This document shows positions 10,461-60,179 of a DNA stretch of 64,000 nt, piece by piece. Origin of the DNA: an uncultured Gammaproteobacteria bacterium (GTDB lineage Bacteria; Patescibacteriota; Patescibacteriia; VMEV01; CAZAJQ01); contig CAZAJQ010000003.1 in the NCBI GenBank assembly GCA_964485795.1, forward strand, positions 68,940 through 132,939, read 5' to 3'. Every line of letters begins with the position of its first letter. Positions within the stretch are counted from its first letter, which is position 1. The notes under the pieces were generated by a model, which saw nothing but the letters and a program-made list of their open reading frames with translations, ran no database searches and was not told the DNA's origin. The translations under genes and the position numbers were made by a program.

Positions 10461-11342
10461 CTACATTTCTCCGGTGGCATTGATTGCTCGTGAAACTCGT
10501 CTCTGAAGTGCGAGCGTCACGGTGTTCGCAAGCAACATGGCCACGGTGACCGGCCCCACGCCGCCCGGAACCGGTGAAATCCATGAAGCGATTTTCTCGA
10601 CGTTTGCAAAATCAACGTCACCTTCGATGCCATGTTCGGTTTTTGTGGTGCCGACATCGATCACGATGGCGTTTTGTTTCACCATTTCCGCGGTGATGAA
10701 ACTTGGCTTACCCACCGCCACGATCAACACGTCCGATCGCAAGGTTTTATTTTTTATATCGGAATCGTTTGCCCCGCACCATTCGGCGGTCATACGCATT
10801 TTTTGAAATTGATGCATGAGCGGTTTCGCGAATATCTCGCTGTTTGACACGATCGCCGCATGTTTGTCGGTAAGCGGTTCGGCGGTGAAATCGAGCATTT
10901 TCACGATGGCCGAAGTGAGTACCGGCGGTATATCAGAACGATTTTCCAAAAACGCGGAAAGATTTTTTTTGTGAAACCCGTCCACGTCTTTTTCGGGATC
11001 CAATGCGTCGATGATACGGTCGGTGTCAAGATGCTTGGGCAGGGGAAGCTGAACGATGATGCCCGCGATATCGGGATCGCGGTTGAGAAACTTGACGGCC
11101 GCCATTATCTCGTCCGGAGTGCTTTTTTCTGTGCAGAGGTAGGTATGAAAATCGATGCCGATTTTTTTTGCGGCTTTTTCTTTGAGAGAGACGTAGAGTT
11201 TGGAAGCCGCGTCATCACCCACCAGAATGGCCGCAAGCCCGGGATGCAGGTCGTATCGTGCGATGCATTCGCGGGTTTGTTTTTCAATATCCGCGGCGAT
11301 TTTTTTGCCGTCTATGAGCGAGGCTCGGTGGAATTTTGGCAT
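10461..11342 (-). CDS. folD: Bifunctional methylenetetrahydrofolate dehydrogenase / methenyl-THF cyclohydrolase
   Basis: FolD signature along the whole length: ASKLYVSLKEKAAKKIGI, VQLPLP, and an NAD(P)-binding Rossmann segment (VAVGKPSFI...PVPGGVGPVTVAMLLANTV). Confidence 0.9.
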   Translation of the reverse strand: MPKFHRASLIDGKKIAADIEKQTRECIARYDLHPGLAAILVGDDAASKLYVSLKEKAAKKIGIDFHTYLCTEKSTPDEIMAAVKFLNRDPDIAGIIVQLPLPKHLDTDRIIDALDPEKDVDGFHKKNLSAFLENRSDIPPVLTSAIVKMLDFTAEPLTDKHAAIVSNSEIFAKPLMHQFQKMRMTAEWCGANDSDIKNKTLRSDVLIVAVGKPSFITAEMVKQNAIVIDVGTTKTEHGIEGDVDFANVEKIASWISPVPGGVGPVTVAMLLANTVTLALQRRVSRAINATGEM

Positions 11343-11626
11343 ACAAAAAGATGGGAAAATATAAAAATTATCCCCATCATAGGAAAAATGAAGGCAAAAG
11401 ACAATGTATGCACCTATGGATATTGGTTTATTGTCCCGTTTTGGGATGGATCCGGAGCTATCGATGGAATGATGCGATACCGCGATTCTCCCCGATGATT
11501 GCGCTGAAAAATTGAACCTTTTTTATTTGCTTGCTTTTATCGGCGTTTTATGTTATTTTTTGTGGCTGTTCTTTAAATATTGTTTCTCTATTTTTTTATT
11601 TTTTACCTTTTTGGGAGGTTGTTATC

Positions 11627-12133
11627 ATGAAAAAAGAAGTCAAGGACAAAATGGTTCGAAAAATTCTTCAAGAGATTTTAGCTGGTACGGAACGGAATCT
11701 CGAAAAAGAATTTGAAGTATGTTCGAATATTTTCTTTACCGAGCTCTTTGGCAAACCGCTCTATGATGCGGTGAAGCAAAGTAACCCGAGTAGGGAAGCT
11801 ATTGAGGGGGTTAGCAAAATATTCAACAAGGTGGGCTTAGATGATTCTTCGAAACGAGAAAAAATCGCGAAGGAGAAGTTCGTTTCTTTGCTCGAAAAGT
11901 ATCGAGCAAAGAAAAAAAGGCAAAAAAAGTATCCTCCTTATGAGGAAGAAAATCTTCGGAAAATGTACCATTACAACTTTTCAAAGATTTTCTCTATTAT
12001 GAGAGAACTTTATTGCGGCTCTTTGGAGGAATCATTTCCCATGACCCAGGAGCAAAAGGTCATGAGCATGAAAATCATCAAAGAGGAAATCATTGATGAT
12101 ATCATCAAAAGAGCAAGTGAAGGAAATAAATAA
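11627..12133 (+). CDS. Hypothetical protein (168 aa, K/E-rich, no recognisable domain)
   Basis: GGGAGG ribosome-binding site at 11614-11619, 7 nt before the ATG at 11627. The ORF extends upstream to 11531, but that part has no RBS and is hydrophobic low-complexity. Confidence 0.4.
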   Translation: MKKEVKDKMVRKILQEILAGTERNLEKEFEVCSNIFFTELFGKPLYDAVKQSNPSREAIEGVSKIFNKVGLDDSSKREKIAKEKFVSLLEKYRAKKKRQKKYPPYEEENLRKMYHYNFSKIFSIMRELYCGSLEESFPMTQEQKVMSMKIIKEEIIDDIIKRASEGNK

Positions 12134-12210
12134 ATTTTTTTTAAAAAAATACAAATCCCTGAGTATGGAGAAGCTCTGGGATTTTTTTTGTTTCAAAAAA
12201 GGGATGGCAT

Positions 12211-13500
12211 TTATGCCAGCTCTGGATACAGCGGATAGCGAGCCGTTAATTCTTTGACGGCTCTACGGATATCCTCTTTTACGGTTTCATCATCGCGATA
12301 TTCGATGGTCTTTGCGATGAGCTTTGCCACCTGCGTGCAGTCGTTTTCGTTGAATCCTCGAGTCGTGATGGCCGGAGTCCCGAGTCGTATGCCGGAGGGA
12401 TCCATGGGGTTCCGAGTATCATCGGGAATCATGTTTTTATTGCAGGTGATCATCACCGAGTCGAGCAGCTCCTGCGCCTGTTTGCCGCTGACGCCCTTTG
12501 GCGTGACATCGATAAGCATGAGGTGATTGTCCGTACCGCCGAAGCAGAGTTTGAAGCCGTCGCTGGCGAGTTGCAGTGACATGGCCTTGGCGTTTATTCT
12601 TATCTGCTTGGCATACGTTTTGAATTCCGGTTGCAAAGCTTCTTTGAAAGCCACGGCTTTTGCCGCGATATTGTTTTCATGAGGTCCGCCTTGCAGTCCC
12701 GGGAACACCGCCTTGTCTATGGCTTTGGCGTGCAGGGCTTTGCACATGATCATGCCCCCGCGCGGACCGCGAAGCGTTTTGTGCGTCGTCGTGGAAACCA
12801 CGTCAAAAAGTGGAACCGGATTATTCATCTCACCCGCGGCGATCAGACCCGCGATATGAGCGATATCGGCCATGGTGAGCGCGGATATCTCGTCGGCGAT
12901 CGCTTTGATATTTGCATAATCGATTTCCCGCGAATAGGCGGAGTATCCCACGAGGATCAGCTTTGGTTTGTGTTCCAAGGCCATCGAGCGAAGATGATCA
13001 TAATCGATGCTTCCGTCGGATGACGTTTTATACCGCACGAAATTATAAATCTTCGCCATGAAGGTGACCGGATGGCCATGGGTGAGATGTCCGCCGTGTG
13101 AAAGATCCATGCCGAGCACGGTATCGCCGGGATCGAGCAATGCGGAGTAAACGGCCATATTCGCTGGTGCGCCGGAAAGCGGCTGGACATTGACATGTTC
13201 GGCTCCGAAAAGCTGCCTAGCGCGGTCGATGGCGAGCTGTTCGATCTCGTCGATATATTGGTTACCGCCGTAATACCGCTTGCCGACATAACCTTCGGAG
13301 TATTTGTTGGTCAAAACGCTGCCCAAGGCTTCGAGTACGGCCTTTGAAACGAAGTTTTCGGAAGGGATGAGCTCAATGCCTTCACGCTGGCGCGTCAATT
13401 CTCGTCGTATGGAAGCGTAGATATCCGGGTCAAAGGTTTGAAGTGATGACATAAGAGGGGGACGCAGGAGTTCGTAAGCTGTCAATTCATAGGCCATCAA
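12211..13500 (-). CDS. glyA: Serine hydroxymethyltransferase
   Basis: IELIPSENFVSKAVLEALGSVLTNKYSEGY and the PLP-site TTTHKTLRGPRGG. The true start is probably the internal Met (MSSLQTFDPDIY), around 13452. Confidence 0.92.
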   Translation of the reverse strand: MMAYELTAYELLRPPLMSSLQTFDPDIYASIRRELTRQREGIELIPSENFVSKAVLEALGSVLTNKYSEGYVGKRYYGGNQYIDEIEQLAIDRARQLFGAEHVNVQPLSGAPANMAVYSALLDPGDTVLGMDLSHGGHLTHGHPVTFMAKIYNFVRYKTSSDGSIDYDHLRSMALEHKPKLILVGYSAYSREIDYANIKAIADEISALTMADIAHIAGLIAAGEMNNPVPLFDVVSTTTHKTLRGPRGGMIMCKALHAKAIDKAVFPGLQGGPHENNIAAKAVAFKEALQPEFKTYAKQIRINAKAMSLQLASDGFKLCFGGTDNHLMLIDVTPKGVSGKQAQELLDSVMITCNKNMIPDDTRNPMDPSGIRLGTPAITTRGFNENDCTQVAKLIAKTIEYRDDETVKEDIRRAVKELTARYPLYPELA

Positions 13501-13657
13501 GTATCCCTTATCCTTTGCTGCGTGAAAGAATGTTGGCCTGCGGTTTGCTGCTTACGGTTTCCATTGACTTTTATTGTATTTCCAGTATATTTATCAGTTA
13601 TTGCTTGCGTGAAGATTTCTTAAAATTGTATGTTTTTTTCAAAGAAAGGACAAGAGC

Positions 13658-14203
13658 ATGTATCTGGCATTGATAATATTGTTCGGTATCGTTCTTATGC
13701 AAAGAAGCGAAGACTTTACCGTAAGCTTTCTGATATTTTTTTCGGTCGCTGCTATGGTTGTTTGGGTGCGAATGCGGGCTCATGCGATTCGAAGTTTGCA
13801 GGTTTTTGACCGCAAGATGACCCTGTGCGGAGGGTGTGAGAAATGCAAAAAGTTTGAAGCGGAATATAAACGAGAGGTTCATGCTTTTGGCGAGCAAGGG
13901 GTAGAGGATATTGAGTCTATCGAGACATGGATTCTGAAAGTCATAGAAAAGATGCCTTCATGTCTCACCGGTGTTCCGCTTTTTTTTACTTTTTTGATTT
14001 CCGGTGAGGTATGTTCCGGGTTTGAATTGACGTTTTGCTGTAAAAGAAGGGATCAAAAAAAGGTCATCTGTCTCGCCTTTGAGTTCAAAGGGGATTTTCA
14101 AATGGATCCCTACTATTTGAAAAAAAACTATTTCGGACACATCGATGATGCTCGGTGGTTTTATCGGGAAATTGTTTTTTACGAATCAAAAGGAAAGGAA
14201 TGA
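13658..14203 (+). CDS. Hypothetical membrane protein with a CxxC...CxxC segment
   Basis: Two N-terminal TM helices, a CGGCEKCKKF motif, and no identifiable family. Its presence as a real gene is uncertain. Confidence 0.3.
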   Translation: MYLALIILFGIVLMQRSEDFTVSFLIFFSVAAMVVWVRMRAHAIRSLQVFDRKMTLCGGCEKCKKFEAEYKREVHAFGEQGVEDIESIETWILKVIEKMPSCLTGVPLFFTFLISGEVCSGFELTFCCKRRDQKKVICLAFEFKGDFQMDPYYLKKNYFGHIDDARWFYREIVFYESKGKE

Positions 14204-14206
14204 AAA

Positions 14207-14563
14207 ATGAAAAGAATCGCGATACTTGTTCTCGTGCTCTTTGTCGGGGGATGCCGGATCAATATGCATAGCGAGGTCACGGCACAGACTGATCGCCATT
14301 CAATATCATTCAGCAGTATTGTTACCAATTTTTCGGCCGTGGAATCGGTAACGGTGAAGTTTTGGAAAGGCGTGCTGGATCATGATATCCGAGCTTTTGA
14401 TAACGATGGGGAGGAGCTGGATTTTGAAAAAAATGGCGACGGGTATGTTCTGAACGTAACCGGAAAACCAAAACCGTGTACCATCAGAATTCGAGAAAAG
14501 GTGGCCGGTAGGTGGTACAAAAGTCTCTATGAGATTGGGGACAAATGCGTCAGAAAGGAGTAG
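14207..14563 (+). CDS. Putative lipoprotein (118 aa)
   Basis: Signal peptide with a lipobox (MKRIAILVLVLFVGGC). The mature part is hydrophilic. No known domain. Confidence 0.4.
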   Translation: MKRIAILVLVLFVGGCRINMHSEVTAQTDRHSISFSSIVTNFSAVESVTVKFWKGVLDHDIRAFDNDGEELDFEKNGDGYVLNVTGKPKPCTIRIREKVAGRWYKSLYEIGDKCVRKE

Positions 14564-14585
14564 GAGAGATTGAAAAAAATCTCAA

Positions 14586-14620
14586 ACCGTAGGTGTTCTT
14601 GCCTGCGGTTTTTTTTATTT
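14586..14620 (+). terminator. Rho-independent terminator candidate
   Basis: aaccgtaggtgttcttgcctgcggtttttttt: an imperfect 8-bp stem followed by a T8 run, 23 bp after the lipoprotein stop. Confidence 0.4.
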
Positions 14621-15216
14621 TTTTATCCACGACAATCGTTTTTTTTTACAGCAACAGTCTAGTAAAGTTTCGATCGATGCAATACGCGATGGAGGGGATA
14701 ATTCATATATGGTATACGTATGATTTTTATACAGCTATTTTAGCGAATTTTATAAAGTTTATGATCATTCATCGGGGGAGTGAACGCATTGAGTCCATCA
14801 TTATACTTTTTCTCAAACGTATGAGGTGGGAGGCCTTTTATGGCCTGCAACTGTCAAAATTTTTATGATGAGGTGTTTGCCTCATCATCAAATCCATCGG
14901 ACGGTACGATTCTGAACGCAGAACGAAATCATTGTTGCTGTGGAGGCAAAGCATCTTTTAAGGACGAATTGCTGCTTTTAGGCTTTGCTATTGTCTTGAC
15001 GCTGGGAATTTCCTTCATCATTTTTTGTTTCTATCATTTCTTGAAGTTATTGAAAACATTGTTATTTTTTTCCTAAAAATAAAAAAATATTTTCAATATT
15101 CGCAGGATCTCGCTACTCGAGATCCTCACTTTCCTCCCTCCAAAGCGATTTGGGAGGAGAAAAGTGGGTGCTAAAAAAGAAACGTAGAAACGGTTTTTTT
15201 CGAAAGGAAAAAGAAA

Positions 15217-16278
15217 ATGAAAAAGTTGTTTGTTGTTCTTTTCATTATTTTTGTTGGGGGATTGATGATGGGATGCGTATCTGGGAAAGATACTATAATG
15301 AGAGAAGGCCATCAGTATCCTTATCCTCAGCTCAGGATCTTTTATGCGGCTTCAAATGATGAAAGGGAGGCAATGAGGTTTCAAATGGAATATGCTCTCA
15401 CGTACATTCCTGAGAAGCTTCGCAAAGTGAAGAGTATTTATTATTGCGATCTATGTGACGATTGTTGGAAAGATACCAACATCGCCAAACAAGAAAATTT
15501 TAAGGTAAAGTTTGAAGCCAGAAATTTCAGAGATTCAAATGAAATTCATGTGAATTTTTTTAATGCACGATATCTTCGTGATCCATTTGCTCTCGGAATA
15601 ATTCATCTCATGATTCATGAATTTGGGCATTCTCATGATGCCTATGTCAATAAATGGCCTCATGAACTGCGAGAAAGGCTTGTCGCCCTATATAGGGAAG
15701 CAAAATCTAAAGGGCGTGAGCATGCTTATATGATAAGTACTCTTGAAGAGTACTGGTCATACACCTTTGCCGACGTATTGATGGGGTTTACTGATACATC
15801 GGAAAAAATTATGCTGGTCAAGGATTATTGCAAATATTATCTTGGTCGAAATTTCGATATTGTTGAATATCGAAAGCGCATGGAATGTGAACGAGAAGTA
15901 TTAGAAAAAAAGTATACTAAATATCTTTCAAGTCGCCTTATATGTGGCGGAAAGCGTTTTATGATTATCGACCTACTTGGAGAGCAAAGAAGTTATTTTC
16001 TTGCCAAAAATGAGAGAACACATAATTTCGTTATGAGCCGGTGGATGTCAGTAGGAGATGACGAAACTATGTCTAAGATGAGTGAGAATGATAAAGTGCG
16101 CATTCTCATGAAATCCTGCGGGTTTAATTATATCAATTTTTATGTTGAAAAAGGGGATACCATCCTCGCAGTAAAGATCCATGATACATGGAGATACTGT
16201 CGAATCCCAAGTGTTCAGGAAATTATCAGGGTTCTTTGGAAAATAAGTTATGATCTCGACCATTATAGAACCGGATAA
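15217..16278 (+). CDS. Putative zinc-metallopeptidase lipoprotein (HEXXH)
   Basis: Signal peptide with a lipobox-like MKKLFVVLFIIFVGGLMMGC and an HEXXH motif (IHLMIHEFGHSHD). It is preceded by three short hairpins at 15100-15200. Confidence 0.45.
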   Translation: MKKLFVVLFIIFVGGLMMGCVSGKDTIMREGHQYPYPQLRIFYAASNDEREAMRFQMEYALTYIPEKLRKVKSIYYCDLCDDCWKDTNIAKQENFKVKFEARNFRDSNEIHVNFFNARYLRDPFALGIIHLMIHEFGHSHDAYVNKWPHELRERLVALYREAKSKGREHAYMISTLEEYWSYTFADVLMGFTDTSEKIMLVKDYCKYYLGRNFDIVEYRKRMECEREVLEKKYTKYLSSRLICGGKRFMIIDLLGEQRSYFLAKNERTHNFVMSRWMSVGDDETMSKMSENDKVRILMKSCGFNYINFYVEKGDTILAVKIHDTWRYCRIPSVQEIIRVLWKISYDLDHYRTG

Positions 16279-16305
16279 AATTCTTTTTTATAGATCTCAT
16301 CATTC

Positions 16306-16343
16306 AGCTCGCAGCAAAAAAGTTGCGAGCTGATTTTTTTTAT
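16306..16343 (+). terminator. Rho-independent terminator
   Basis: cagctcgca-gcaaaaaag-ttgcgagctg followed by attttttttat, 28 bp after the stop of the 15217..16278 gene. Confidence 0.5.
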
Positions 16344-16391
16344 ATCCGCTTCACCATATACGTCCCCGAAAGCCTATACCCGAGCTTTTTA
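16320..16391. repeat. 72-bp direct repeat, copy 1 (71/72 identical to 17681..17752)
   Basis: aagttgcgagctgattttttttatatccGcttcaccatatacgtccccgaaagcctatacccgagcttttta. Copy 2 is the 3' end of elp3 (it encodes ...YKKLGYRLSGTYMVKGI on the minus strand). Copy 1 is therefore a non-functional duplicate of a gene end. Confidence 0.9.
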
Positions 16392-16427
16392 CTGTATTCC
16401 AGATTTTCATACCAAGGTATAATATTA

Positions 16428-16455
16428 TTGACTTTTTTTTCTACTATGGTACAAT
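16428..16455 (+). promoter_or_regulatory. Sigma70-like promoter candidate for the AAA ATPase gene
   Basis: -35 TTGACT (16428-16433), 16-nt spacer, -10 TACAAT (16450-16455). The ATG is at 16495. Confidence 0.4.
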
Positions 16456-16494
16456 ATCAGTGGTAGTAAAATACTAAAAGTATAAGAGCATTTT

Positions 16495-17673
16495 ATGATA
16501 AAAGATCGATATCTATCGCCATTTATCACCTCCGATTTGCAAAAAAAGATGGTTTTTCTTGGAGGACCTCGTCAGGTTGGCAAAACCAGCCTGGCTCTTT
16601 TTATCGGCAGAAATCACTACAAGAATTCAACATATTACAATTGGGACAACCGAGACGATAAAAAGGCGATGCTTCATGACACATTTCCATCCGAGACAGA
16701 TCTGATAATTTTTGATGAAATTCATAAGTATCGACCCTGGAAAAATTTCATCAAAGGTAAATACGATAAGCATAAGGATGACTTTCATATGCTCGTGACG
16801 GGTAGCGCACGCCTTGATCTCTATCGAAAAGGCGGGGATTCGCTGATGGGACGTTATCATTATTATCGTCTTCATCCTTTTACCCTTGCAGAGGTTCTTA
16901 AAGTATTACCGAAATCAAATGTTGGCGGCGAACTTTTCTTTGTTCCCGAATCAGCGAATGCAAAAACTTTTTTCAATCGCCTCTTTCAATTCGGAGGCTT
17001 TCCCGAACCATATCTCGAGCAAGATATCAAAACTTTGCGAAGATTTCACAATGAACGATTTGATCGACTTTTTAAAGAGGATATCCGAGAGATAGAAAGC
17101 ATTCGATACCTTTCTCAACTTCAAATATTTGCTGAGTTGCTTCCTACGAAAGTCGGATCGCTTCTTTCTTTGAACTCATTTCGCGAAGATTTGCAAGTGA
17201 CGCATAAAACCATCTCTCATTGGGCAGATGTTCTCGAAAATTTCTACTATCATTTTCGGATCTACCCCTTTGCATCATCGTTGATCAAGTCTCTTAGAAA
17301 GGAACCAAAACTGTATTTGTGGGACTGGTCGCAGATTCATGATGAATCGATCAGATTGGAAAACATGGTCGCGAGTCATCTTTTGAAATTCGTGCATTTC
17401 ATTCAAGATACGCAAGGATACAAAATAGCACTCCATTTTCTCCGAGACGTCGAGCAAAGAGAGGTGGATTTTCTTGTGACCATCAATAATTCGCCTTGGT
17501 TTGCCGTTGAAGTAAAAAAATTTGACACATCGCCATCCTCTACACTTCTGTATTTCCAAAAAAAGCTTCGCATCCCCTTCATATATCAAGTGATAATGAA
17601 TCACGGTATCGATCAACGACAGACTGGAATCCGAGTCATAAGCGCAAGTAAATTTTTAACGTCATTGATATAA
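16495..17673 (+). CDS. AAA+ superfamily ATPase, COG1373 family (ATPase domain plus C-terminal DUF4143-like domain)
   Basis: Walker A (FLGGPRQVGKTSLAL) and Walker B (LIIFDEIH). MLVTGSARLDL...GRYHYYRLHPFTLAE is characteristic of COG1373. The C-terminal roughly 150 aa is DUF4143-like. Confidence 0.7.
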   Translation: MIKDRYLSPFITSDLQKKMVFLGGPRQVGKTSLALFIGRNHYKNSTYYNWDNRDDKKAMLHDTFPSETDLIIFDEIHKYRPWKNFIKGKYDKHKDDFHMLVTGSARLDLYRKGGDSLMGRYHYYRLHPFTLAEVLKVLPKSNVGGELFFVPESANAKTFFNRLFQFGGFPEPYLEQDIKTLRRFHNERFDRLFKEDIREIESIRYLSQLQIFAELLPTKVGSLLSLNSFREDLQVTHKTISHWADVLENFYYHFRIYPFASSLIKSLRKEPKLYLWDWSQIHDESIRLENMVASHLLKFVHFIQDTQGYKIALHFLRDVEQREVDFLVTINNSPWFAVEVKKFDTSPSSTLLYFQKKLRIPFIYQVIMNHGIDQRQTGIRVISASKFLTSLI

Positions 17674-17680
17674 TCTCATA

Positions 17681-17752
17681 AAGTTGCGAGCTGATTTTTT
17701 TTATATCCCCTTCACCATATACGTCCCCGAAAGCCTATACCCGAGCTTTTTA
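17681..17752. repeat. 72-bp direct repeat, copy 2 (the authentic 3' end of elp3)
   Basis: See copy 1. Together the two copies bracket a 1.29-kb segment containing only the AAA ATPase gene and its promoter. Confidence 0.9.
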
Positions 17753-19374
17753 TAATACTCCCTCGACCCGATGCCCGCGATGACGGCTATTTTTTCATAG
17801 CCTTTTTTTTGCGCGATTGCCTCGGCTCGCCGCAGAAGTTTTTTTCCCAGTCCTCGATGCTGAGACGAATCGCTGGTCGAATCTTTTTCCCTGATGCTCT
17901 GAACCTTTCCATAGGTATGCAATTCTCGTATCAATGCGCAATGTTTCAGATCGGATATGAAAATATCTTCTTGTCTCGGTAGCCGAAGGCGTAAAAAAGA
18001 ATACAACGTCGTTTGAAATTCATTTTCAAAAGAAATAAAAAATTCCTTCCCTCCCGAAGCTTCAAATTCAAACTCATGCATGATAATCTTCTCTCTCTGA
18101 GTACTGTGAACTGAGTACTGAGTATTTGCCGCCTCCTTTCCCACTTGCCTGCACCTCATGCATCGACACTTTTCACCGCGTTTCTCCAATTCTTTTTGAA
18201 GGTATTCCCGAAGATTGAGGATTTTGTTTCCGGCAAGAACGGTTTTTGACGGGATATCGCGAAAAACCCGATCGATTCGTACATACTGAGGTACGATTTT
18301 TTTTATTTCGAGCAAGGTTTCAAAAAGCTCTTCATCCGTATAGGGTCGATAATTTCCCTGTTTCCACCAGCGATACAAAAGCGCGTCCTTGACCACCACG
18401 CAAGGATATATTTTGAGCTGATCGGGCTTGAAGTCGGCATCGGAAAATATTTTTTTGAATCCGAGAATATCCTTTTCCGGCGTGGATCCGGGCAAACCCG
18501 GCATCATGTGGTACTGGATTTTGAATCCGGCGTTTCGAAGCAGTTTTGTGGCTCTTGCGGCGTCCGATCCGTCTTCTTCCCTTCGAGTCAGCTTTTGCAC
18601 TGCATCGTCCACGGATTGCACGCCGAGTTCGATCCTCGTGCATCCGAGATCACGCAGGCGTTTCACTTCGGTTTCCGTGATGTGATCCGGCCTCGTTTCG
18701 ATGGTCATGCCGATGATGCGGTTTTTCGCGTATTCGTTTTTTTTCTGCGCGGCTATCAGATTTTTTTTACCCTTATCGATTTTATGAAGCTTGGCAGCGT
18801 TTTCATCCGTCATTTCAAAACGCGAATTTGCTGCGTCAAAGCATCGCTTGATGAACCATGTCTGGTACTGCTTGGGGTAAAACGACCATGTTCCGCCGGT
18901 GATATGGAGCTCGATTTTTTCGGTGTTGTGTCCGTTGAGATGCAAAGCCGTGATTCGTGACTTCACCTGACGATAGGGATCCCAAGCATTGCGCACGGCG
19001 CGCATCACGGCCGGTTGATCCGGCAAATAGCTTTTCGGCATGTTTTTCGCCGTAGGGCAGTACACGCATTTTCCGGGGCAGGGAAACGGTTTCGTGAGAA
19101 GCGCCACCACGGCCACTCCGGAAGAAGTGCGTATGGCGCGTTTTTGGAGCATGTTTTCGAGTCTTTGATCGGCGGCAATCACGGTATCATGCACCATTTT
19201 TCGATACGTTCGCAAAATATCGGATTTTGCGGGAGAAGGAAATTTATATTTACCGGCGCTTTTGCGTATAATGATTTCAGCGTCGCCGGAATTTTTCGGA
19301 TATTGCGCGACAAGATCTCTGACGATGATGTCAAGCACTTTCTGCGGATGGGTTTTTTTGTAGGTCAGAGGCAT
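17701..19374 (-). CDS. elp3: Elongator Elp3-like protein (radical-SAM plus GNAT acetyltransferase), putative tRNA U34 carboxymethyluridine synthase
   Basis: 557 aa. Radical-SAM cysteine cluster (CPGKCVYCP), a central Elp3-type rSAM domain (GHNTEKIELHITGGTWSFYP...TRIELGVQSVDD) and a C-terminal GNAT motif (QHRGLGKKLLRRAEAIAQKKGYEKIAVIAGIGSREYYKKLGY). Confidence 0.85.
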   Translation of the reverse strand: MPLTYKKTHPQKVLDIIVRDLVAQYPKNSGDAEIIIRKSAGKYKFPSPAKSDILRTYRKMVHDTVIAADQRLENMLQKRAIRTSSGVAVVALLTKPFPCPGKCVYCPTAKNMPKSYLPDQPAVMRAVRNAWDPYRQVKSRITALHLNGHNTEKIELHITGGTWSFYPKQYQTWFIKRCFDAANSRFEMTDENAAKLHKIDKGKKNLIAAQKKNEYAKNRIIGMTIETRPDHITETEVKRLRDLGCTRIELGVQSVDDAVQKLTRREEDGSDAARATKLLRNAGFKIQYHMMPGLPGSTPEKDILGFKKIFSDADFKPDQLKIYPCVVVKDALLYRWWKQGNYRPYTDEELFETLLEIKKIVPQYVRIDRVFRDIPSKTVLAGNKILNLREYLQKELEKRGEKCRCMRCRQVGKEAANTQYSVHSTQREKIIMHEFEFEASGGKEFFISFENEFQTTLYSFLRLRLPRQEDIFISDLKHCALIRELHTYGKVQSIREKDSTSDSSQHRGLGKKLLRRAEAIAQKKGYEKIAVIAGIGSREYYKKLGYRLSGTYMVKGI

Positions 19375-19420
19375 AATACTTGAATCAATTTTTTATCATC
19401 GCGATCGAAATCAATAAAAT

Positions 19421-20092
19421 ATGCGTTCAACTCGAGTAGACGTCATCATGCGTCAAATTCAAACCGATTATGATACCATCGCCGTTCATTTTTCGCAAAC
19501 CAGAAAAAAGGTTTGGACTGACCTTGATCCGTTGCTCGCGCATGTGAAAAACGGGGATAAGGTTCTCGATATGGGGTGCGGAGACGGGAGACTCTATGAA
19601 TACCTTCGAGCAAAAAACGTTGAGTATCTCGGCATGGATTTTTCAGAAGCTTTTATACGCATCGCGCGAAATCGATATCCGGACTTGAAATTTATCCGGC
19701 ATGATATGACGCGTAAGCTTTCATTTTCAGGATTTGATTGCGTATTTTTGATCGCAAGTCTCCAGCATCTTCCCACGCAAGCGTTGGCGATTGCAACGCT
19801 TCGAAACGTTTTTTCGTATCTGAAACCCGGCGGCTATCTTCTCATGACCAATTGGAATCTGTACCATCATAGCTTTTTGAAACATTTTTTTAAAACAAGA
19901 CTGCGACACCCGTTTTGGCCTCCAAAGAACGTTGAAATCCCTTGGAAAGACAGCGACGGAAAAATCCTCAGCCGTCGTTTTTATCATGCGTTTACGGTTC
20001 ATGAGCTGAAAAAACTTTTACAAAGATCGGGGTTTTGCGTTCTTGAGTTTCATGAAAGACAAAATTTCATTGTTGTCGCACAAAAGCGATGA
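19421..20092 (+). CDS. Trm9-like class I SAM-dependent methyltransferase
   Basis: SAM motif I (VLDMGCGDGRL). The N-terminal DYDTIAVHFSQTRKKVW matches the Trm9/ALKBH8-MT hallmark (V(Y/H)..IAPHFS.TR.K.WP), and the C-terminus FIVVAQKR resembles the Trm9 end. The gene is divergent from elp3, 46 bp away. Confidence 0.6.
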   Translation: MRSTRVDVIMRQIQTDYDTIAVHFSQTRKKVWTDLDPLLAHVKNGDKVLDMGCGDGRLYEYLRAKNVEYLGMDFSEAFIRIARNRYPDLKFIRHDMTRKLSFSGFDCVFLIASLQHLPTQALAIATLRNVFSYLKPGGYLLMTNWNLYHHSFLKHFFKTRLRHPFWPPKNVEIPWKDSDGKILSRRFYHAFTVHELKKLLQRSGFCVLEFHERQNFIVVAQKR

Positions 20093-20110: not shown

Positions 20111-21373
20111 TTGGAGTCTCAGAAGATAATACAAATTGCGTTTGAATTAATTTTTTTTAAAAAAATCAGTGGTATGTTTTTATTTCATCAGAAGCGAAAA
20201 ATTCGCTCAGCATGTGCCGTTATCGTCTTGATATTTCTCGTTCCCGTCATAACCTTTGCGGCCGGCATCGTGAATGACAAACAGTGGTATCTGCCTTCGG
20301 ACGAGACTTTTGACGATAATCTTTTTGTGTCTGGTGAAGAGATCGTCATCGATGGCAATGTCAAGGGTGATGTGATCGCGGCCGGAGGAAGCGTGGAAGT
20401 GCGAGGCAATGTCGAAGGAGACATCATTGCGGCGGCAGGAGAGATCAGCGTATCCGGACATGTGGGCGGCAATGTGCGCGTCGCGGGCGGCGATGTTCGA
20501 CTTTTCGGAGATGTCGAAAAAAACGTCAACGTTTTTTCGGGACAATTTGATATGAACGATGAAAGTCATATCGGCGGAACGATGACGTTTTTCGGCGGTG
20601 CTGGAAATATCGCGGGGAGCATCGGTCGCGATCTCTATGTCGGAGCCGGCCAGCTTGCGCTGAAATCAATGGTTGAACGAAATGCGACGATTTGGAGCGA
20701 CTCCGAAGGCGTTTCACTTCATCCCAAGACTCGGATCGGCGGTGATTTCACCTATACCGGCTCCAATGAACTGCTGCTCGGTGACGATATGGTCGCCGGC
20801 AAGGTTCACTTCCAGAGATTGGCCGCCGCACCAAAAAAAGATATTTTGGGCTTCATGAAAACATTTGCCGCCGGATTTTCCGGGTTTTGGCTGGGTATGA
20901 AAGTCATGTCCATGCTCGGAATGTTTTTGGTCGGTCTCGTGATGATTTTTTTGAAAAAGAAAAAAGTCTTTGCCTTGGTCAAAGTCGCTTCGCAATCGTT
21001 TCCGAGGATTCTTGGGTACGGATTTTTGATGTTTATCATCATCCCCATCTGCGCCGTCATTGCCGCGTTTACGGTGGTGGGACTGCCGCTGGCCGCGACC
21101 CTTGTGGCGCTTTACCTTGTCATGCTGTATCTTTCCAAAGTTGTCATGGGCATTGCCTTGGGGCATTTTCTTTTGACATCATCGGGAAATACGGGTAAAA
21201 AAGGTTTCAAAGAAGCGAATCTTTTCGCATCCATGTTCCTCGGTATTTTCGCGCTCAGCGTGATGTCAACGCTTCCTTTGATCGGCTGGCTGATATCATT
21301 GATCGCGATCGTCTGGGGTTTTGGCGTCTTCTTCGTGTTTGAGAGGCAAATGCTCGAAAAAATCAAAGATTGA
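20111..21373 (+). CDS. Membrane protein with bactofilin-like (polymer-forming) beta-helical repeats
   Basis: N-terminal signal/TM helix. Repeats (GNVKGDVIAAGGSVEVRGNVEGDIIAAAGEISVSGHVGGNVRVAGGDVRLFGDVEKNVNV) fit the bactofilin/DUF342 pattern. The C-terminal third has 4-5 TM helices. The probable start is the internal Met at 20174. Confidence 0.45.
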   Translation: MESQKIIQIAFELIFFKKISGMFLFHQKRKIRSACAVIVLIFLVPVITFAAGIVNDKQWYLPSDETFDDNLFVSGEEIVIDGNVKGDVIAAGGSVEVRGNVEGDIIAAAGEISVSGHVGGNVRVAGGDVRLFGDVEKNVNVFSGQFDMNDESHIGGTMTFFGGAGNIAGSIGRDLYVGAGQLALKSMVERNATIWSDSEGVSLHPKTRIGGDFTYTGSNELLLGDDMVAGKVHFQRLAAAPKKDILGFMKTFAAGFSGFWLGMKVMSMLGMFLVGLVMIFLKKKKVFALVKVASQSFPRILGYGFLMFIIIPICAVIAAFTVVGLPLAATLVALYLVMLYLSKVVMGIALGHFLLTSSGNTGKKGFKEANLFASMFLGIFALSVMSTLPLIGWLISLIAIVWGFGVFFVFERQMLEKIKD

Positions 21374-30669: not shown

Positions 30670-30743
30670 GGGCCCTTAGCTCAGCTGGCTAGAGTGCTTC
30701 CATGGCATGGAAGAGGTCACGGGTTCAAATCCCGTAGGGTCCA
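30670..30743 (+). tRNA. tRNA-Ala (anticodon GGC)
   Basis: Cloverleaf read by eye: acceptor GGGCCCT/AGGGTCC with a G3:U70 pair (the Ala identity element), anticodon arm cttcc-aTGGCat-ggaag, T-arm cacggGTTCAAATcccgt. No encoded CCA. Confidence 0.85.
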
Positions 30744-30826
30744 TACGATAGAGTTTAGAGTCTGGAGTCTAGGATCTAGACTTCAGATTCTTACCAAAAA
30801 ACATATCAACGTTCGCAACTCTCTTT

Positions 30827-30897
30827 GGGCCTATAGTCTAGTGGCATGACAGGGCATTCGCATTGCTCAGGCGGGAGTTCGATTCTCCCTAGGTCCA
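30827..30897 (+). tRNA. tRNA-Ala (anticodon CGC)
   Basis: Acceptor GGGCCTA/TAGGTCC with G3:U70, anticodon arm gggca-ttCGCat-tgctc, T-arm gggagTTCGATTctccc, and a 3-bp D-stem. Confidence 0.75.
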
Positions 30898-30922
30898 TAC
30901 AATAGATTCTAGAGTCTCATCG

Positions 30923-30996
30923 GGGTGCATGGCTCAGCTGGTTAGAGCGCTGTCCTCACACGACAGAGGTCCCTGGTTCGAATCCAGGTGCGCCCA
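30923..30996 (+). tRNA. tRNA-Val (anticodon CAC)
   Basis: Acceptor GGGTGCA/TGCGCCC, D-arm gctcAGCTGGTTAGagc, anticodon arm ctgtc-ctCACac-gacag, T-arm cctggTTCGAATccagg. Confidence 0.85.
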
Positions 30997-52479: not shown

Positions 52480-53808
52480 TTGATGATGGATATTTTTATG
52501 AGTCATACCATTTTCTTATCGAATATTTCTTCTTTCGTGGGGCAAGAGGTTGCGTTGCGAGGATGGGTGTCCAATTTCCGTTCGAGCGGAAAAATATTTT
52601 TTTTGCAATTTCGCGACGGAACCGGAACTATACAGGCCGTGGTGAGCAAGGATGCCGTATCCGAGCAAGCATGGGCATCGTTGCAGGACATGGGTTTGGA
52701 ATCATCGGTCGAATTGGCGGGCATGGTGAAGCGCGATGACCGCGCGGAAAGCGGTTTTGAGCTGGAAGCAAGGCAGGTTCGTATCGTTCAGAATGCCAAG
52801 GACTATCCCATCTCAAAGAAAGAGCATGGTCCGGATTTTCTCCTCGATCATCGGCATCTCTGGATTCGATCCAAAAGACAGTGGGCCATACTGCGCATTC
52901 GGCACACGATCATCTATGCCCTGTATGATTTTTTACGCGAACAGCAATTCATGCGTTTTGACACCCCGGTTTTGACGCCCAATGCTTGTGAAGGAACCAC
53001 CGAACTTTTTGAAGTGGATTATTTCGGGAATCCTTCGTATCTTTCTCAGAGCGGACAATTGTATTTGGAGTCCGCGATCATGAGTTTTGGACGGGCGTAT
53101 GATTTTGGACCGGTGTTTCGCGCGGAAAAATCAAAAACAAGGAGGCACCTTATCGAATTTTGGATGCTGGACGCCGAGATGGCTTACGCGGACTGTGAAG
53201 AGAACATGAATATTCAGGAACGATTAGTCACGTATGTTGTTTCCGAGGTATTGAAAAAAAATAGACTGGAGCTTGCGATTTTGGAGAGAGATACGGCAAT
53301 GCTTGAAAAGGTTACGCCGCCATTTTATAAAAAGACGTACACCGAAGTCGTGAAGGAATTGCAAAGCATGGGTTCGGAAATACATCTCGGCGATGATCTT
53401 GGCGCGGCCGATGAGACCATGCTCACCGTGAAATATGATAAGCCCGTCTTTGTGAAAGAATATCCGCGAGCCATCAAAGCGTTTTATATGAAAAAAGCCG
53501 ATGCAAAGCCCGATGATCAGGGTATGGAGTTTGTCAAAAACAACGATCTCTTGGCTCCGGAAGGATATGGGGAAATTATCGGAGGCTCGGAAAGGGAAGA
53601 CCGTTATGAGGTGCTTTTGGAATCCATACAAAGGGAAAAACTGCCGATAGCCGATTTTCAATGGTACCTCGATTTGAGAAAGTACGGATCCGTGCCCCAT
53701 TCCGGATTCGGCGTGGGATTGGAGAGGCTGGTGACGTGGATTTGCGGCTTGAAACATGTGAGAGAGTCCATTCCTTTTCCGCGGCTTATCAACCGCTATA
53801 AACCTTAA
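52480..53808 (+). CDS. asnS: Class IIb aminoacyl-tRNA synthetase, probable asparaginyl-tRNA synthetase
   Basis: N-terminal OB anticodon-binding domain (VALRGWVSNFRSSGKIFFLQFRDGTG), class II motifs 1-3 and a C-terminal HSGFGVGLERLV...IPFPR (AsnRS-like GFG). The Asn-versus-Asp assignment is tentative. Confidence 0.65.
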   Translation: MMMDIFMSHTIFLSNISSFVGQEVALRGWVSNFRSSGKIFFLQFRDGTGTIQAVVSKDAVSEQAWASLQDMGLESSVELAGMVKRDDRAESGFELEARQVRIVQNAKDYPISKKEHGPDFLLDHRHLWIRSKRQWAILRIRHTIIYALYDFLREQQFMRFDTPVLTPNACEGTTELFEVDYFGNPSYLSQSGQLYLESAIMSFGRAYDFGPVFRAEKSKTRRHLIEFWMLDAEMAYADCEENMNIQERLVTYVVSEVLKKNRLELAILERDTAMLEKVTPPFYKKTYTEVVKELQSMGSEIHLGDDLGAADETMLTVKYDKPVFVKEYPRAIKAFYMKKADAKPDDQGMEFVKNNDLLAPEGYGEIIGGSEREDRYEVLLESIQREKLPIADFQWYLDLRKYGSVPHSGFGVGLERLVTWICGLKHVRESIPFPRLINRYKP

Positions 53809-53818
53809 CTCAACTTTT

Positions 53819-55147
53819 ATGCGTATCATGAACGAACAGGTCATGGAAAAGATCGGACAAAGCATCGCGGTTGCAGGCTGGGTGAGCGCTGCTAGGAAAA
53901 TGGGGAAAGTCGTTTTTTTGGACATTACCGATCGTTCCGGCAAGCTTCAAATCGTTTGCATTCCCGCGGAAATGGACGAAAGCAAGGATAGGCTTTCTTC
54001 GATAAAGTCGCATACCGTGATAGAAGTGTTTGGAATTGTGCAAAAACGCGATCAAAAACAAGTGAACGCGAAAATATCCACCGGATCCGTCGAACTTTTG
54101 GCAAAAAGCGTAAAAATTCTCTCACATTCCGAAGGGTTGCCTTTTGATATTGACGATAAGCTGAATTTGGAAACCTATTTGGATTTCATGCCCATTACCT
54201 TGCGATCGGATCGAGCCAAAGCCGTGTTTTCCGTTCAGACCGAAATCGTCCACGCATTTCGCGAATTTTTGCGCCATGAAAAGTTTATGGAGTTTCAGGC
54301 ACCCAAGATTGTGGCGCAGGCGGCCGAGGGTGGAGCCAATGTCTATAAGCTCGATTATTTCGGACACAACGCTTTTTTGGCGCAAAGTCCGCAGATTTAC
54401 AAGCAAATCATGGTGGGGGTCTATGAGCGAGTGTTTACGATCGGCAATGTTTATCGAGCCGAACCCCATGCCACTTCTCGGCACCTCAACGAATATACGA
54501 GCATGGACTTGGAATTTGGTTTCATCAAGGATCATACCGACGTGATGAAGCTTGAAAATCGGCTGCTTTCCTTCATATCCCAGCATTTGCAAAAAACATG
54601 TTCTCGGGAATTTTCCATGTTTGAAGCGAGTATCCCAGCCGTACCCCAAGAAATACCCTCGCTCAAGCTCAAGGAAGCGCAAGAGATCATCAAAAAAGAG
54701 TATGGTGAGGATTGCACGAGTGAACCCGATTTGGAGCCGCATCAGGAAATGTTCATCGCCGATTTCATCAAAAAAACTCGAAATTCGGAGTTTGTTTTCA
54801 TCACTCATTACCCGACTTCCAAGCGTCCGTTTTATACGTATCCGGATGAAGCCGATCCCGAGTATACGAAAAGTTTTGACCTTTTGTTCCGTGGCTTGGA
54901 AATCACCACCGGAGGGCAGAGAATCCATGAGTATGAACAGCTTTTGGCAAATTTGAAAAAGTGGAATTACAATCCCGTACATTTTGAATTCATGCTGCAG
55001 TGTTTTCGATATGGAATGCCTCCCGAAGGCGGATTGGCGATAGGGCTGGAGCGGTTGACCGCGAAATACTTGGGTATTGACAATGTCAAATGGGCGACGC
55101 TTTTTCCGAGGGATTTGAATCGAATCGATACCAAACTTTCGCAATAA
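53819..55147 (+). CDS. aspS: Class IIb aminoacyl-tRNA synthetase, probable archaeal/eukaryotic-type aspartyl-tRNA synthetase
   Basis: OB domain (IAVAGWVSAARKMGKVVFLDITDRSG). At 442 aa it is much shorter than the bacterial-type AspRS. The C-terminus (PEGGLAIGLERLTAKYLGIDNVKWATLFPRDLNRI) resembles the archaeal AspRS ending (GLERF...FPRDRKRLTP). Confidence 0.65.
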   Translation: MRIMNEQVMEKIGQSIAVAGWVSAARKMGKVVFLDITDRSGKLQIVCIPAEMDESKDRLSSIKSHTVIEVFGIVQKRDQKQVNAKISTGSVELLAKSVKILSHSEGLPFDIDDKLNLETYLDFMPITLRSDRAKAVFSVQTEIVHAFREFLRHEKFMEFQAPKIVAQAAEGGANVYKLDYFGHNAFLAQSPQIYKQIMVGVYERVFTIGNVYRAEPHATSRHLNEYTSMDLEFGFIKDHTDVMKLENRLLSFISQHLQKTCSREFSMFEASIPAVPQEIPSLKLKEAQEIIKKEYGEDCTSEPDLEPHQEMFIADFIKKTRNSEFVFITHYPTSKRPFYTYPDEADPEYTKSFDLLFRGLEITTGGQRIHEYEQLLANLKKWNYNPVHFEFMLQCFRYGMPPEGGLAIGLERLTAKYLGIDNVKWATLFPRDLNRIDTKLSQ

Positions 55148-59703: not shown

Positions 59704-59776
59704 TGCCGATGTAGCTCAGTTGGTAGAGCATTTCCATGGTAAGGAAAAGGTCACCGGTTCAATTCCGGTCATCGGC
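59704..59776 (+). tRNA. tRNA-Thr (anticodon GGT)
   Basis: Acceptor GCCGATG/CATCGGC, D-arm gctcAGTTGGTAGagc, anticodon arm tttcc-aTGGTaa-ggaaa, T-arm caccgGTTCAATTccggt. Confidence 0.85.
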
Positions 59777-59839
59777 TGTGGAGGGATCCTCCATACATCA
59801 TAGAAACGAGACTCTAGATTCTAGAGTCAAGTCTACTGT

Positions 59840-59913
59840 CGGGGTATGGCCTAATTGGCTATGGCGCACGCTTCGGGTGCGTGAGGTTCTGGGTTCGAGT
59901 CCCAGTACCCCGA
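59840..59913 (+). tRNA. tRNA-Pro (anticodon CGG)
   Basis: Acceptor CGGGGTA/TACCCCG with C1:G72 (bacterial tRNA-Pro identity), anticodon arm cacgc-ttCGGgt-gcgtg, T-arm ctgggTTCGAGTcccag. Confidence 0.8.
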
Positions 59914-60049
59914 AAATTTTTCATGAACAATTTTCTCTTCATTTTTCTTTCATAATCTTTTTTTCATCGATGTGTTCACTGATGAATTTTTATTGTAGAA
60001 AAGAGATTGAGAAATTAGGAATTCGAAAAGAGGGACAAAAAAGAAACAT

Positions 60050-60123
60050 CGGGGATTGGCGCAGATGGCTAGCGCGCTTGCATGGGGTGCAAGAGGTCAC
60101 CAGTTCGAGTCTGGTATCCCCGA
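60050..60123 (+). tRNA. tRNA-Pro (anticodon GGG)
   Basis: Acceptor CGGGGAT/ATCCCCG with C1:G72, D-arm gcgcAGATGGCTAgcgc, anticodon arm cttgc-aTGGGgt-gcaag, T-arm caccaGTTCGAGTctggt. A hairpin follows (agtccgcc-tttg-gcgggact, 60124-60143). Confidence 0.8.
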
Positions 60124-60179
60124 CCAGTCCGCCTTTGGCGGGACTAGACTCTAGATTCTAGAATCTAGTATTTGGAATT

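Follow-up and report, generated by a model that had tools for sequence, protein, structure and literature searches.

The 64,000-nucleotide stretch of DNA analysed here (the window; contig CAZAJQ010000003.1, positions 68,940 to 132,939) comes from a Parcubacteria genome of the Candidate Phyla Radiation (CPR) and carries a pair of genes placed head to head, one for an Elp3 homologue and one for a methyltransferase, whose start codons lie 46 bp apart. The open reading frame (ORF) at 17701..19374 on the minus strand encodes a 557-aa protein beginning with MPLTYKK. The ORF at 19421..20092 on the plus strand encodes a 223-aa protein ending in NFIVVAQKR (METHYLTRANSFERASE), which is 100% identical to MBI4117658.1, a protein from a metagenome-assembled genome (MAG) named 'Parcubacteria group bacterium'. 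An initial annotation had described the first gene as a full-length Elp3 with the motifs CPGKCVYCP and QHRGLGKKLL, and the second, 46 bp away on the opposite strand, as a class I S-adenosylmethionine (SAM)-dependent methyltransferase. Our analysis agreed on both genes, through the ORF, the motifs and the score against the TIGR01211 model for the former, and through the coordinates and quoted motifs for the latter. The intergenic region contains a weak sigma-70-like match (19393-19420, plus strand) for which there is no evidence of function.

Judged by its sequence, the 557-aa protein is unambiguously an Elp3, a member of the family of tRNA U34 carboxymethyl (5-carboxymethyluridine, cm5U) synthases. 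It scored 560.3 bits against the NCBIfam model TIGR01211 (cut-off 350) over model positions 9-521 of 522, and profile searches returned the Pfam domains expected of such a protein: Radical_SAM (PF04055), Radical_SAM_C (PF16199) and Acetyltransf_1 (GNAT/KAT). Its best match in the PDB was the Elp3 of Dehalococcoides mccartyi (DmcElp3, 5L7J; E 1e-121, 47.5% identity), with further matches to Methanocaldococcus infernus Elp3 (E 4e-120) and to eukaryotic Elp3 from yeast and mammals (E 1e-92 to 1e-89). Functionally important residues of DmcElp3, taken from work of the Glatt laboratory (PMC6367351), were mapped onto the CPR protein. The cluster motif CPGKCVYC is nearly the same as the CPGKCIYC of DmcElp3, and the protein has the Cys triad for zinc that is typical of prokaryotic Elp3 (PMC6367351). 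The KAT residues and the acetyl-CoA pocket are likewise kept, K153, K285, E484, H486 and Y540 corresponding to DmcElp3 K77, K193, E386, H388 and Y441. The alignment to DmcElp3 begins only at residue 78 of the CPR protein, which is preceded by a basic N-terminal extension; such an extension, typical of Elp3 from archaea and eukaryotes and required to bind tRNA, is 'completely absent' from DmcElp3 (PMC6367351).

The partner methyltransferase was recognised in library scans only as a generic class I enzyme, by the Pfam families Methyltransf_23, 25, 12, 31 and 11, and no NCBIfam model came close to its cut-off. Sequence search of the PDB, however, gave one end-to-end alignment among the matches listed, to Yarrowia Trm9 (YlTrm9, chain 5CM2_Z; query residues 25-222 against chain residues 2-194). 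The alignment includes TRYKPW/TRKKVW in the N-terminal part and NWWVVAKR/NFIVVAQKR in the C-terminal part, at an identity of only ~26%. The first of these segments belongs to a motif at residues 17-32 (DYDTIAVHFSQTRKKVW). A profile built from 30 members of the methyltransferase family also had 5CM2_Z as its top PDB match (96.4 bits, E 1.4e-26). The initial annotation had described both termini as Trm9-like, and to this extent the end-to-end alignment bears it out. An AlphaFold model of the protein (predicted local distance difference test score 94.4, predicted template modelling score 0.91) has a standard Rossmann fold that carries a helix at the N-terminus and a beta-hairpin at the C-terminus, and the top two structures in a Foldseek search with this model were Trm9 and 3SM3. 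The family is large, with 1,784 representatives at 50% identity (exhaustive search, E <= 1e-30) and at least 1,495 clusters at 90% identity (word-indexed search, E <= 1e-12). Two of its members are called 'tRNA (uracil-5-)-methyltransferase TRM9' by the automatic pipeline of JGI.

Because overall similarity favours Trm9 only marginally, the assignment of the methyltransferase rests on its active-site residues and on its gene linkage. Yeast Trm9 (ScTrm9) loses all or most of its activity when alanine replaces R29, D72, H116, W145, W168, R241, Y243 or N271, R29 being the proposed carboxylate-positioning residue, whereas the changes H24A, K31A, H115A, R122A, E148A, Q149A and D270A are tolerated (PMC4678810). 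These positions were mapped with a MAFFT alignment, and conservation was counted over the 30-member family; the YlTrm9 chain, rebuilt from the printed alignment, matched the numbering of the paper (PMC4678810) at 12 of 12 checked positions. The window methyltransferase keeps eight of the eight essential residues, namely R28, D73, H116, W145, W175, R186, Y188 and N215. Across the family, H116 and W145 are invariant (30/30 each), R186 is present in 29/30, N215 in 26/30, Y188 in 24/30 and W175 in 24/30, the other six members having Phe or Tyr at the last position. Positions at which ScTrm9 tolerates change (K31, H115 and Q149) vary freely in the same 30 sequences. Conservation thus tracks experimental importance, as a substrate pocket shared with Trm9 would predict. 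Two controls were included: 3SM3 has only 2/8 of the essential residues, the generic SAM-binding Asp and one Trp, and an unlinked methyltransferase (from locus L036) has none of the Trm9-specific residues.

The second line of evidence is the association of the two genes across genomes. A scan for Elp3 proteins in one genome per GTDB species yielded 28 loci, all from CPR-type MAGs and with Elp3 identities of 44-52%. By tblastn and a family hidden Markov model, a homologue of the methyltransferase was found at 24 of these 28 loci, and the model separated the linked genes cleanly (178-310 bits, against 19.5 for the next best ORF). At 21 loci the gene lies immediately upstream of Elp3 on the opposite strand, in the divergent arrangement seen in the window. 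The spacing is ~0-430 bp in 16 of these and ~1.1-1.4 kb in two; in the remaining three it was unmeasurable because one ORF was cut by the end of the contig. At three further loci, which belong to one CPR subclade (L007, L015 and L023), the methyltransferase is a more divergent variant, with 27-29% identity to the window protein and Glu at the N271 position, and stands downstream of Elp3 in convergent orientation. Four loci were without a methyltransferase. Among them, L024 has zero DNA upstream of Elp3, and L010 and L017 showed none within their available flanks, even with a variant query of the L007 type. L010 and L017 share their upstream neighbours, a 944-aa and a 120-aa ORF, with the variant subclade.

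All-against-all clustering of the ORFs of 29 loci placed Elp3 in 26 of them, the methyltransferase in 24 and the next family in 7, and no other conserved neighbour of Elp3, such as a thiolation enzyme or an AlkB-like domain, emerged from these 29 loci. Since only Elp3 and the methyltransferase are widely kept, the pair has remained intact as the genes around it were reshuffled. The association was also recovered from the other side: four homologues of the methyltransferase chosen without reference to Elp3 (P0021, P0025, P0026 and P0030) all adjoin an Elp3-type gene, which is divergent, directly upstream, 506-600 aa long and equipped with Radical_SAM and Radical_SAM_C domains. The adjacency described in the initial annotation is thus conserved in related genomes, and it extends to Dehalococcoidia.

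With the DmcElp3 sequence as query, we inspected three loci from Dehalococcoidia/Chloroflexota. In D. mccartyi (CP019867.1), the gene of the crystallised Elp3 has, 43 bp upstream and in divergent orientation, a gene for a 224-aa class I methyltransferase; a second Dehalococcoidia genome, represented by a 1.0-Mb contig, has the same divergent pair, and the third has no adjacent copy. Both of the linked Dehalococcoidia methyltransferases contain eight of eight Trm9 residues as well as the His-His pair. The D. mccartyi protein is named only 'class I SAM-dependent methyltransferase' or 'UbiE' in every public source.

To our knowledge, all characterised Trm9 enzymes need Trm112. We searched the window and 36 loci for this partner by Pfam scans of small neighbouring ORFs, by tblastn with an E. 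coli YcaR query, and by scanning for the motif CxxC...G[IVL]P; nothing convincing resembling Trm112 was found in these partial genomes, which makes this a weak test. A conserved zinc-ribbon protein (72-75 aa, pattern CPxC...CWKC) is encoded two genes away from the Trm9-like methyltransferase in each of the two Dehalococcoidia genomes that have the pair (L034 8423-8650 and L035 8387-8605, both on the minus strand). It matched no Pfam family above threshold and could be a small partner in the manner of Trm112.

Elp3 makes cm5U34 from acetyl-CoA via a radical-SAM mechanism (PMC6367351, PMC13315578), and Trm9 methylates the carboxylate of cm5U to give 5-methoxycarbonylmethyluridine (mcm5U) (PMC4678810, PMC6144793). 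For the locus studied here, sequence comparison shows that the first protein belongs to the Elp3 family, that its catalytic residues and the Trm9 active-site residues of its partner are conserved, and that the linkage of the two genes is kept in CPR and Dehalococcoidia. We consider it probable that the pair forms a wobble-uridine module in which Elp3 would generate cm5U34 and the Trm9-type enzyme would convert it to mcm5U34. In the first step, Elp3 would use its [4Fe-4S] cluster, a SAM-derived 5'-deoxyadenosyl radical and acetyl-CoA to install a carboxymethyl group on C5 of U34, giving cm5U34, and its substrates would be the organism's own U34 tRNAs. In the second, the methyltransferase would use SAM to esterify the cm5U34 carboxylate. 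On the model put forward for the yeast enzyme, the carboxylate would be placed by Arg28 and His116 and the uridine bound by Trp145, Trp175, Arg186, Tyr188 and Asn215. The two genes may also be co-regulated from the 46 bp that they share.

A wider proposal, possible yet less likely than its negation, is that Elp3 and Trm9 form a portable two-gene cassette of CPR/Patescibacteria and Dehalococcoidia, groups that account for much of bacterial diversity. Within it, mcm5U or its 2-thio form, mcm5(s2)U, would replace the 5-(carboxy)methylaminomethyluridine ((c)mnm5U) type of modification made by MnmE/MnmG, and the methyltransferase would work free of Trm112, as the first bacterial and the first stand-alone Trm9. 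Such a cassette would either predate the separation of the domains, as a relic, or have passed between them as a unit.

Several observations weigh against mcm5U as the product of the pair. First, the likeness of the methyltransferase to Trm9 in overall sequence and fold is only marginally above that to other class I methyltransferases, a correction to the distinction from a generic methyltransferase drawn in the initial annotation. Second, 3SM3 is nearly tied with Trm9, and the tied structural neighbours include METTL6, a tRNA 3-methylcytidine (m3C) methyltransferase. Third, the equivalents of Y243 and N271 vary. Fourth, the search for Trm112 in the window and 36 loci, all partial genomes, found none. 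Lastly, the class I fold, motif I and the SAM-binding Asp of the protein are generic and do not discriminate between enzymes of this class. The first four points, together with the fact that linkage demonstrates coupling and not chemistry, would fit a methyltransferase that is coupled to Elp3 but carries out another methylation, of a different C5-substituted uridine (xm5U) intermediate, of another tRNA position or of Elp3 itself, so that the product is not mcm5U. However, the Arg/His pair for the cm5U carboxylate is kept, as are the two Trp, the Arg and the Asn of the uridine pocket, while non-essential positions drift, a pattern of conservation that would be hard to explain with another substrate; we regard this alternative as unlikely.

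The non-discriminating fold also leaves room for a generic small-molecule methyltransferase, UbiE/MenG or similar, that lies next to Elp3 without functional meaning. Such an identity is suggested by the Pfam Ubie_methyltran score of 35.8 bits and by JGI/UniRef labels reading 'UbiE' or 'methylase involved in ubiquinone/menaquinone biosynthesis', but all UbiE/MenG models of NCBIfam fall far under their cut-offs (36-43 bits against 158-378; the best were NF001244, 43.3 against 216, and TIGR01934, 39.6 against 158), and the protein carries eight of eight essential Trm9 residues. Furthermore, the linkage outlasts the divergence of Elp3 to 44-52% identity, at which no other neighbour persists, and the pair recurs in Dehalococcoidia. 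CPR bacteria and Dehalococcoides are not known to have quinone biosynthesis, which we also count against such an enzyme, and we hold this explanation to be very improbable. Equally improbable is that the Elp3 homologue is a protein or small-molecule acetyltransferase, or another radical-SAM enzyme, and that the pair acts on a non-tRNA substrate: no bacterial cm5U-derived nucleoside (xcm5U) has been measured and the in vitro activity of DmcElp3 is very weak (PMC7663514), but the CPR Elp3 keeps all catalytic residues of the tRNA pathway and has the basic N-terminal tRNA-binding extension (role according to PMC6367351), tRNA specifically triggers acetyl-CoA hydrolysis by DmcElp3 (PMC6367351), and the partner methyltransferase has a Trm9 active site.

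The probable mcm5U module can be compared with several known systems. Yeast Trm9-Trm112 and the methyltransferase domain of ALKBH8 with TRMT112 esterify cm5U34 to mcm5U34. The bacterial methyltransferase has in common with eukaryotic Trm9 the class I Rossmann fold, the helix motif x-I-A-x-H-F-S-x-T-R-x-x-x-W, the eight essential residues, the C-terminal strand N-x-x-V-V-A-x-K and a predicted place in the pathway downstream of Elp3. It differs in its bacterial host, in its identity of ~26% to Yarrowia Trm9, in that no Trm112 partner was found at the loci searched, and in having no fused RRM or AlkB domains; its gene is physically paired with that of Elp3, whereas the eukaryotic genes are not.

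Among archaea, the Elp3 and Trm9 genes of Sulfolobus solfataricus are clustered, and Trm9-Trm112 of Haloferax volcanii makes mcm5U (PMC6144793, PMC5372719). Shared with these systems are an Elp3 without Elp1, 2, 4, 5 or 6, the clustering of Elp3 and Trm9-like genes, and mcm5U as the predicted or demonstrated product. Unlike the CPR pair, they have archaeal hosts, and Haloferax Trm9 is dependent on Trm112 in vivo. PDB entry 6F5Z, considered as a structure of H. volcanii Trm9, turned out to be Hvo_0019. With DmcElp3 (5L7J, 5L7L and 6IA6) the CPR Elp3 shares CPGKC(I/V)YC, the zinc triad, the acetyl-CoA residues and a divergent Trm9-like neighbour; DmcElp3 is without the basic N-terminal extension of ~75 aa, which the CPR protein possesses like full-length archaeal and eukaryotic Elp3.

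Among bacterial pathways, MnmE/MnmG (with MnmC) modify the same target, C5 of U34, and presumably serve the same decoding role at purine-ending codons, but they consist of an unrelated GTPase and an FAD/folate enzyme instead of a radical-SAM/acetyl-CoA enzyme and yield 5-carboxymethylaminomethyl (cmnm5) or 5-methylaminomethyl (mnm5) groups instead of cm5 or mcm5. No mnmE or mnmG gene is present in the window, as initially annotated, although this carries little weight since 64 kb is only part of the genome; besides the pair itself, no other wobble-uridine modification gene was found in these 64 kb. CmoM of E. coli is a bacterial class I methyltransferase that also esterifies a wobble-uridine carboxylate, converting uridine 5-oxyacetic acid (cmo5U34) to its methyl ester (mcmo5U34). 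Its pathway differs in using CmoA/CmoB and an oxyacetic acid side chain, and it is not known to be linked to Elp3. CmoM was not among the top PDB matches listed for the methyltransferase or for its profile.

According to a 2017 review, no bacterial homologues of Trm112-dependent methyltransferases, Trm9 included, are detectable (PMC5372719), and a review from 2020 assigns bacterial Elp3 to just one clade, reports no direct evidence of xcm5U there and does not mention Trm9 (PMC7663514). Our literature search for Elp3 in CPR/Patescibacteria found nothing relevant, nor did one for MnmG in Patescibacteria. The recurrent pairing in CPR and Dehalococcoides suggests a Trm9 and mcm5U in bacteria, of which the searchable literature has no description. 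The initial annotation nevertheless went too far in proposing an undescribed system: the pair adds a new bacterial example to a pathway already known, and the chemistry itself is not new. Nor does the rarity of bacterial Elp3, which the annotation had stressed, count for much. Some reviews do call it 'rare' or confined to 'one specific anaerobic bacterial clade', and more recently 'numerous bacteria' have been said to have it; Elp3 is already on record from bacteria, and DmcElp3 has been crystallised. What is particular to the pair is its tight divergent arrangement, the full-length Elp3 in CPR and a possible independence from Trm112.

The locus and its relatives are evidence, at the genome level, for the whole route from cm5U to mcm5U in bacteria. 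As the partner gene also lies beside the crystallised DmcElp3 in a cultivable organism, the in vivo product of a bacterial Elp3 becomes directly testable. For the study of enzymes implicated in human disease, the locus further offers simpler biochemical models, namely a bacterial Elp3 of full length and a Trm9 that may be independent of Trm112. There would also be hundreds of annotations as 'UbiE' or 'class I methyltransferase' to revise.

Table 1. Sequence features of the Elp3/Trm9-like pair in the window, and positions of the variant methyltransferase in three related loci.
Feature	Position	Strand	Remarks
Elp3 KAT-domain acetyl-CoA motif through Tyr540	17737..17862	-	QHRGLGKKLL, residues 505-514, at 17833-17862
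Elp3 zinc-binding Cys triad CRCMRC	18151..18168	-	Cys403, 405, 408 = DmcElp3 C310, C312, C315
Elp3 radical-SAM [4Fe-4S] motif CPGKCVYC(P)	19057..19080	-	Cys99, Cys103, Cys106
Elp3 basic N-terminal extension	19144..19374	-	residues 1-77; 14 Lys/Arg vs 8 Asp/Glu
Divergent intergenic region	19375..19420		46 bp, AT-rich; presumed shared promoter region
N-terminal Trm9-like helix motif YDTIAVHFSQTRKKVW	19469..19516	+	includes Arg28 = ScTrm9 R29; invariant, 30/30
SAM-binding motif I VLDMGCGDG and Asp73 (= ScTrm9 D72)	19562..19645	+	D73 invariant, 30/30
Substrate-pocket residues H116, W145, W175, R186, Y188, N215	19754..20089	+	= ScTrm9 H116, W145, W168, R241, Y243, N271
Variant methyltransferase	L007 11951-12664; L015 13683-14396; L023 1852-2574

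Elsewhere the window consists of ordinary core genome, including the end of rpoC, ftsK, recA, ychF, folD, glyA, pgm, murI, pyk, prfA/B, an rpsG-fusA-tuf cluster, secY, adk, map, recO and two class II aminoacyl-tRNA synthetases. The region at 13600-17700, between glyA (serine hydroxymethyltransferase, SHMT; 12211-13500) and Elp3, has a low GC content (0.386-0.395, against ~0.46 elsewhere) and a local flip in GC skew. It contains three ORFs without a Pfam match (13658-14203, 14207-14563 and 15217-16278) and an AAA_14/DUF4143 ATPase (16495-17673). Since SHMT immediately adjoins Elp3 in the relatives L029 and L032, this region looks like an inserted variable island. In several CPR loci SHMT, often together with FolD, is found downstream of Elp3 (window 10461-13500; L029 1910-4065; L030 833-2122; L032 702-2000), and the SHMT family was found in 5 loci. 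Genes of one-carbon metabolism thereby adjoin the SAM- and acetyl-CoA-dependent Elp3, which may be coincidental local synteny.

Immediately 3' of the methyltransferase, a 420-aa membrane protein with a bactofilin-like beta-solenoid is encoded at 20111-21373, followed by phosphoglucomutase and then glutamate racemase, an order kept in at least two relatives; the counterparts of the membrane protein there (L029 6762-7871 and L030 6737-7744) contain DUF8173. Farther along the window, tandem paralogues of a 442-aa class II aminoacyl-tRNA synthetase (52480-53808 and 53819-55147) each have a tRNA-synt_2 core and an OB-fold anticodon-binding domain; they presumably represent AspRS and AsnRS, or a pair akin to these.

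All six tRNA genes of the window have G34 or C34. They form two clusters without U34, Ala-GGC/Ala-CGC/Val-CAC at 30670-30996 and Thr-GGT/Pro-CGG/Pro-GGG at 59705-60126, in the second of which the Pro-GGG called by ARAGORN (60050-60126) is under the Rfam gathering score. The tRNA-Val gene (30923-30996) overlaps the mechanically called start of an MgtE ORF (30929), so the true MgtE start must be further downstream. Lastly, several MAGs with CPR-type Elp3/Trm9-like loci (L001, L003, L005, L009 and L014) are titled 'uncultured Gammaproteobacteria', and L012, L013, L018 and others are titled 'uncultured Candidatus Saccharibacteria'; the Gammaproteobacteria labels on these third-party-assembled MAGs are probably unreliable.

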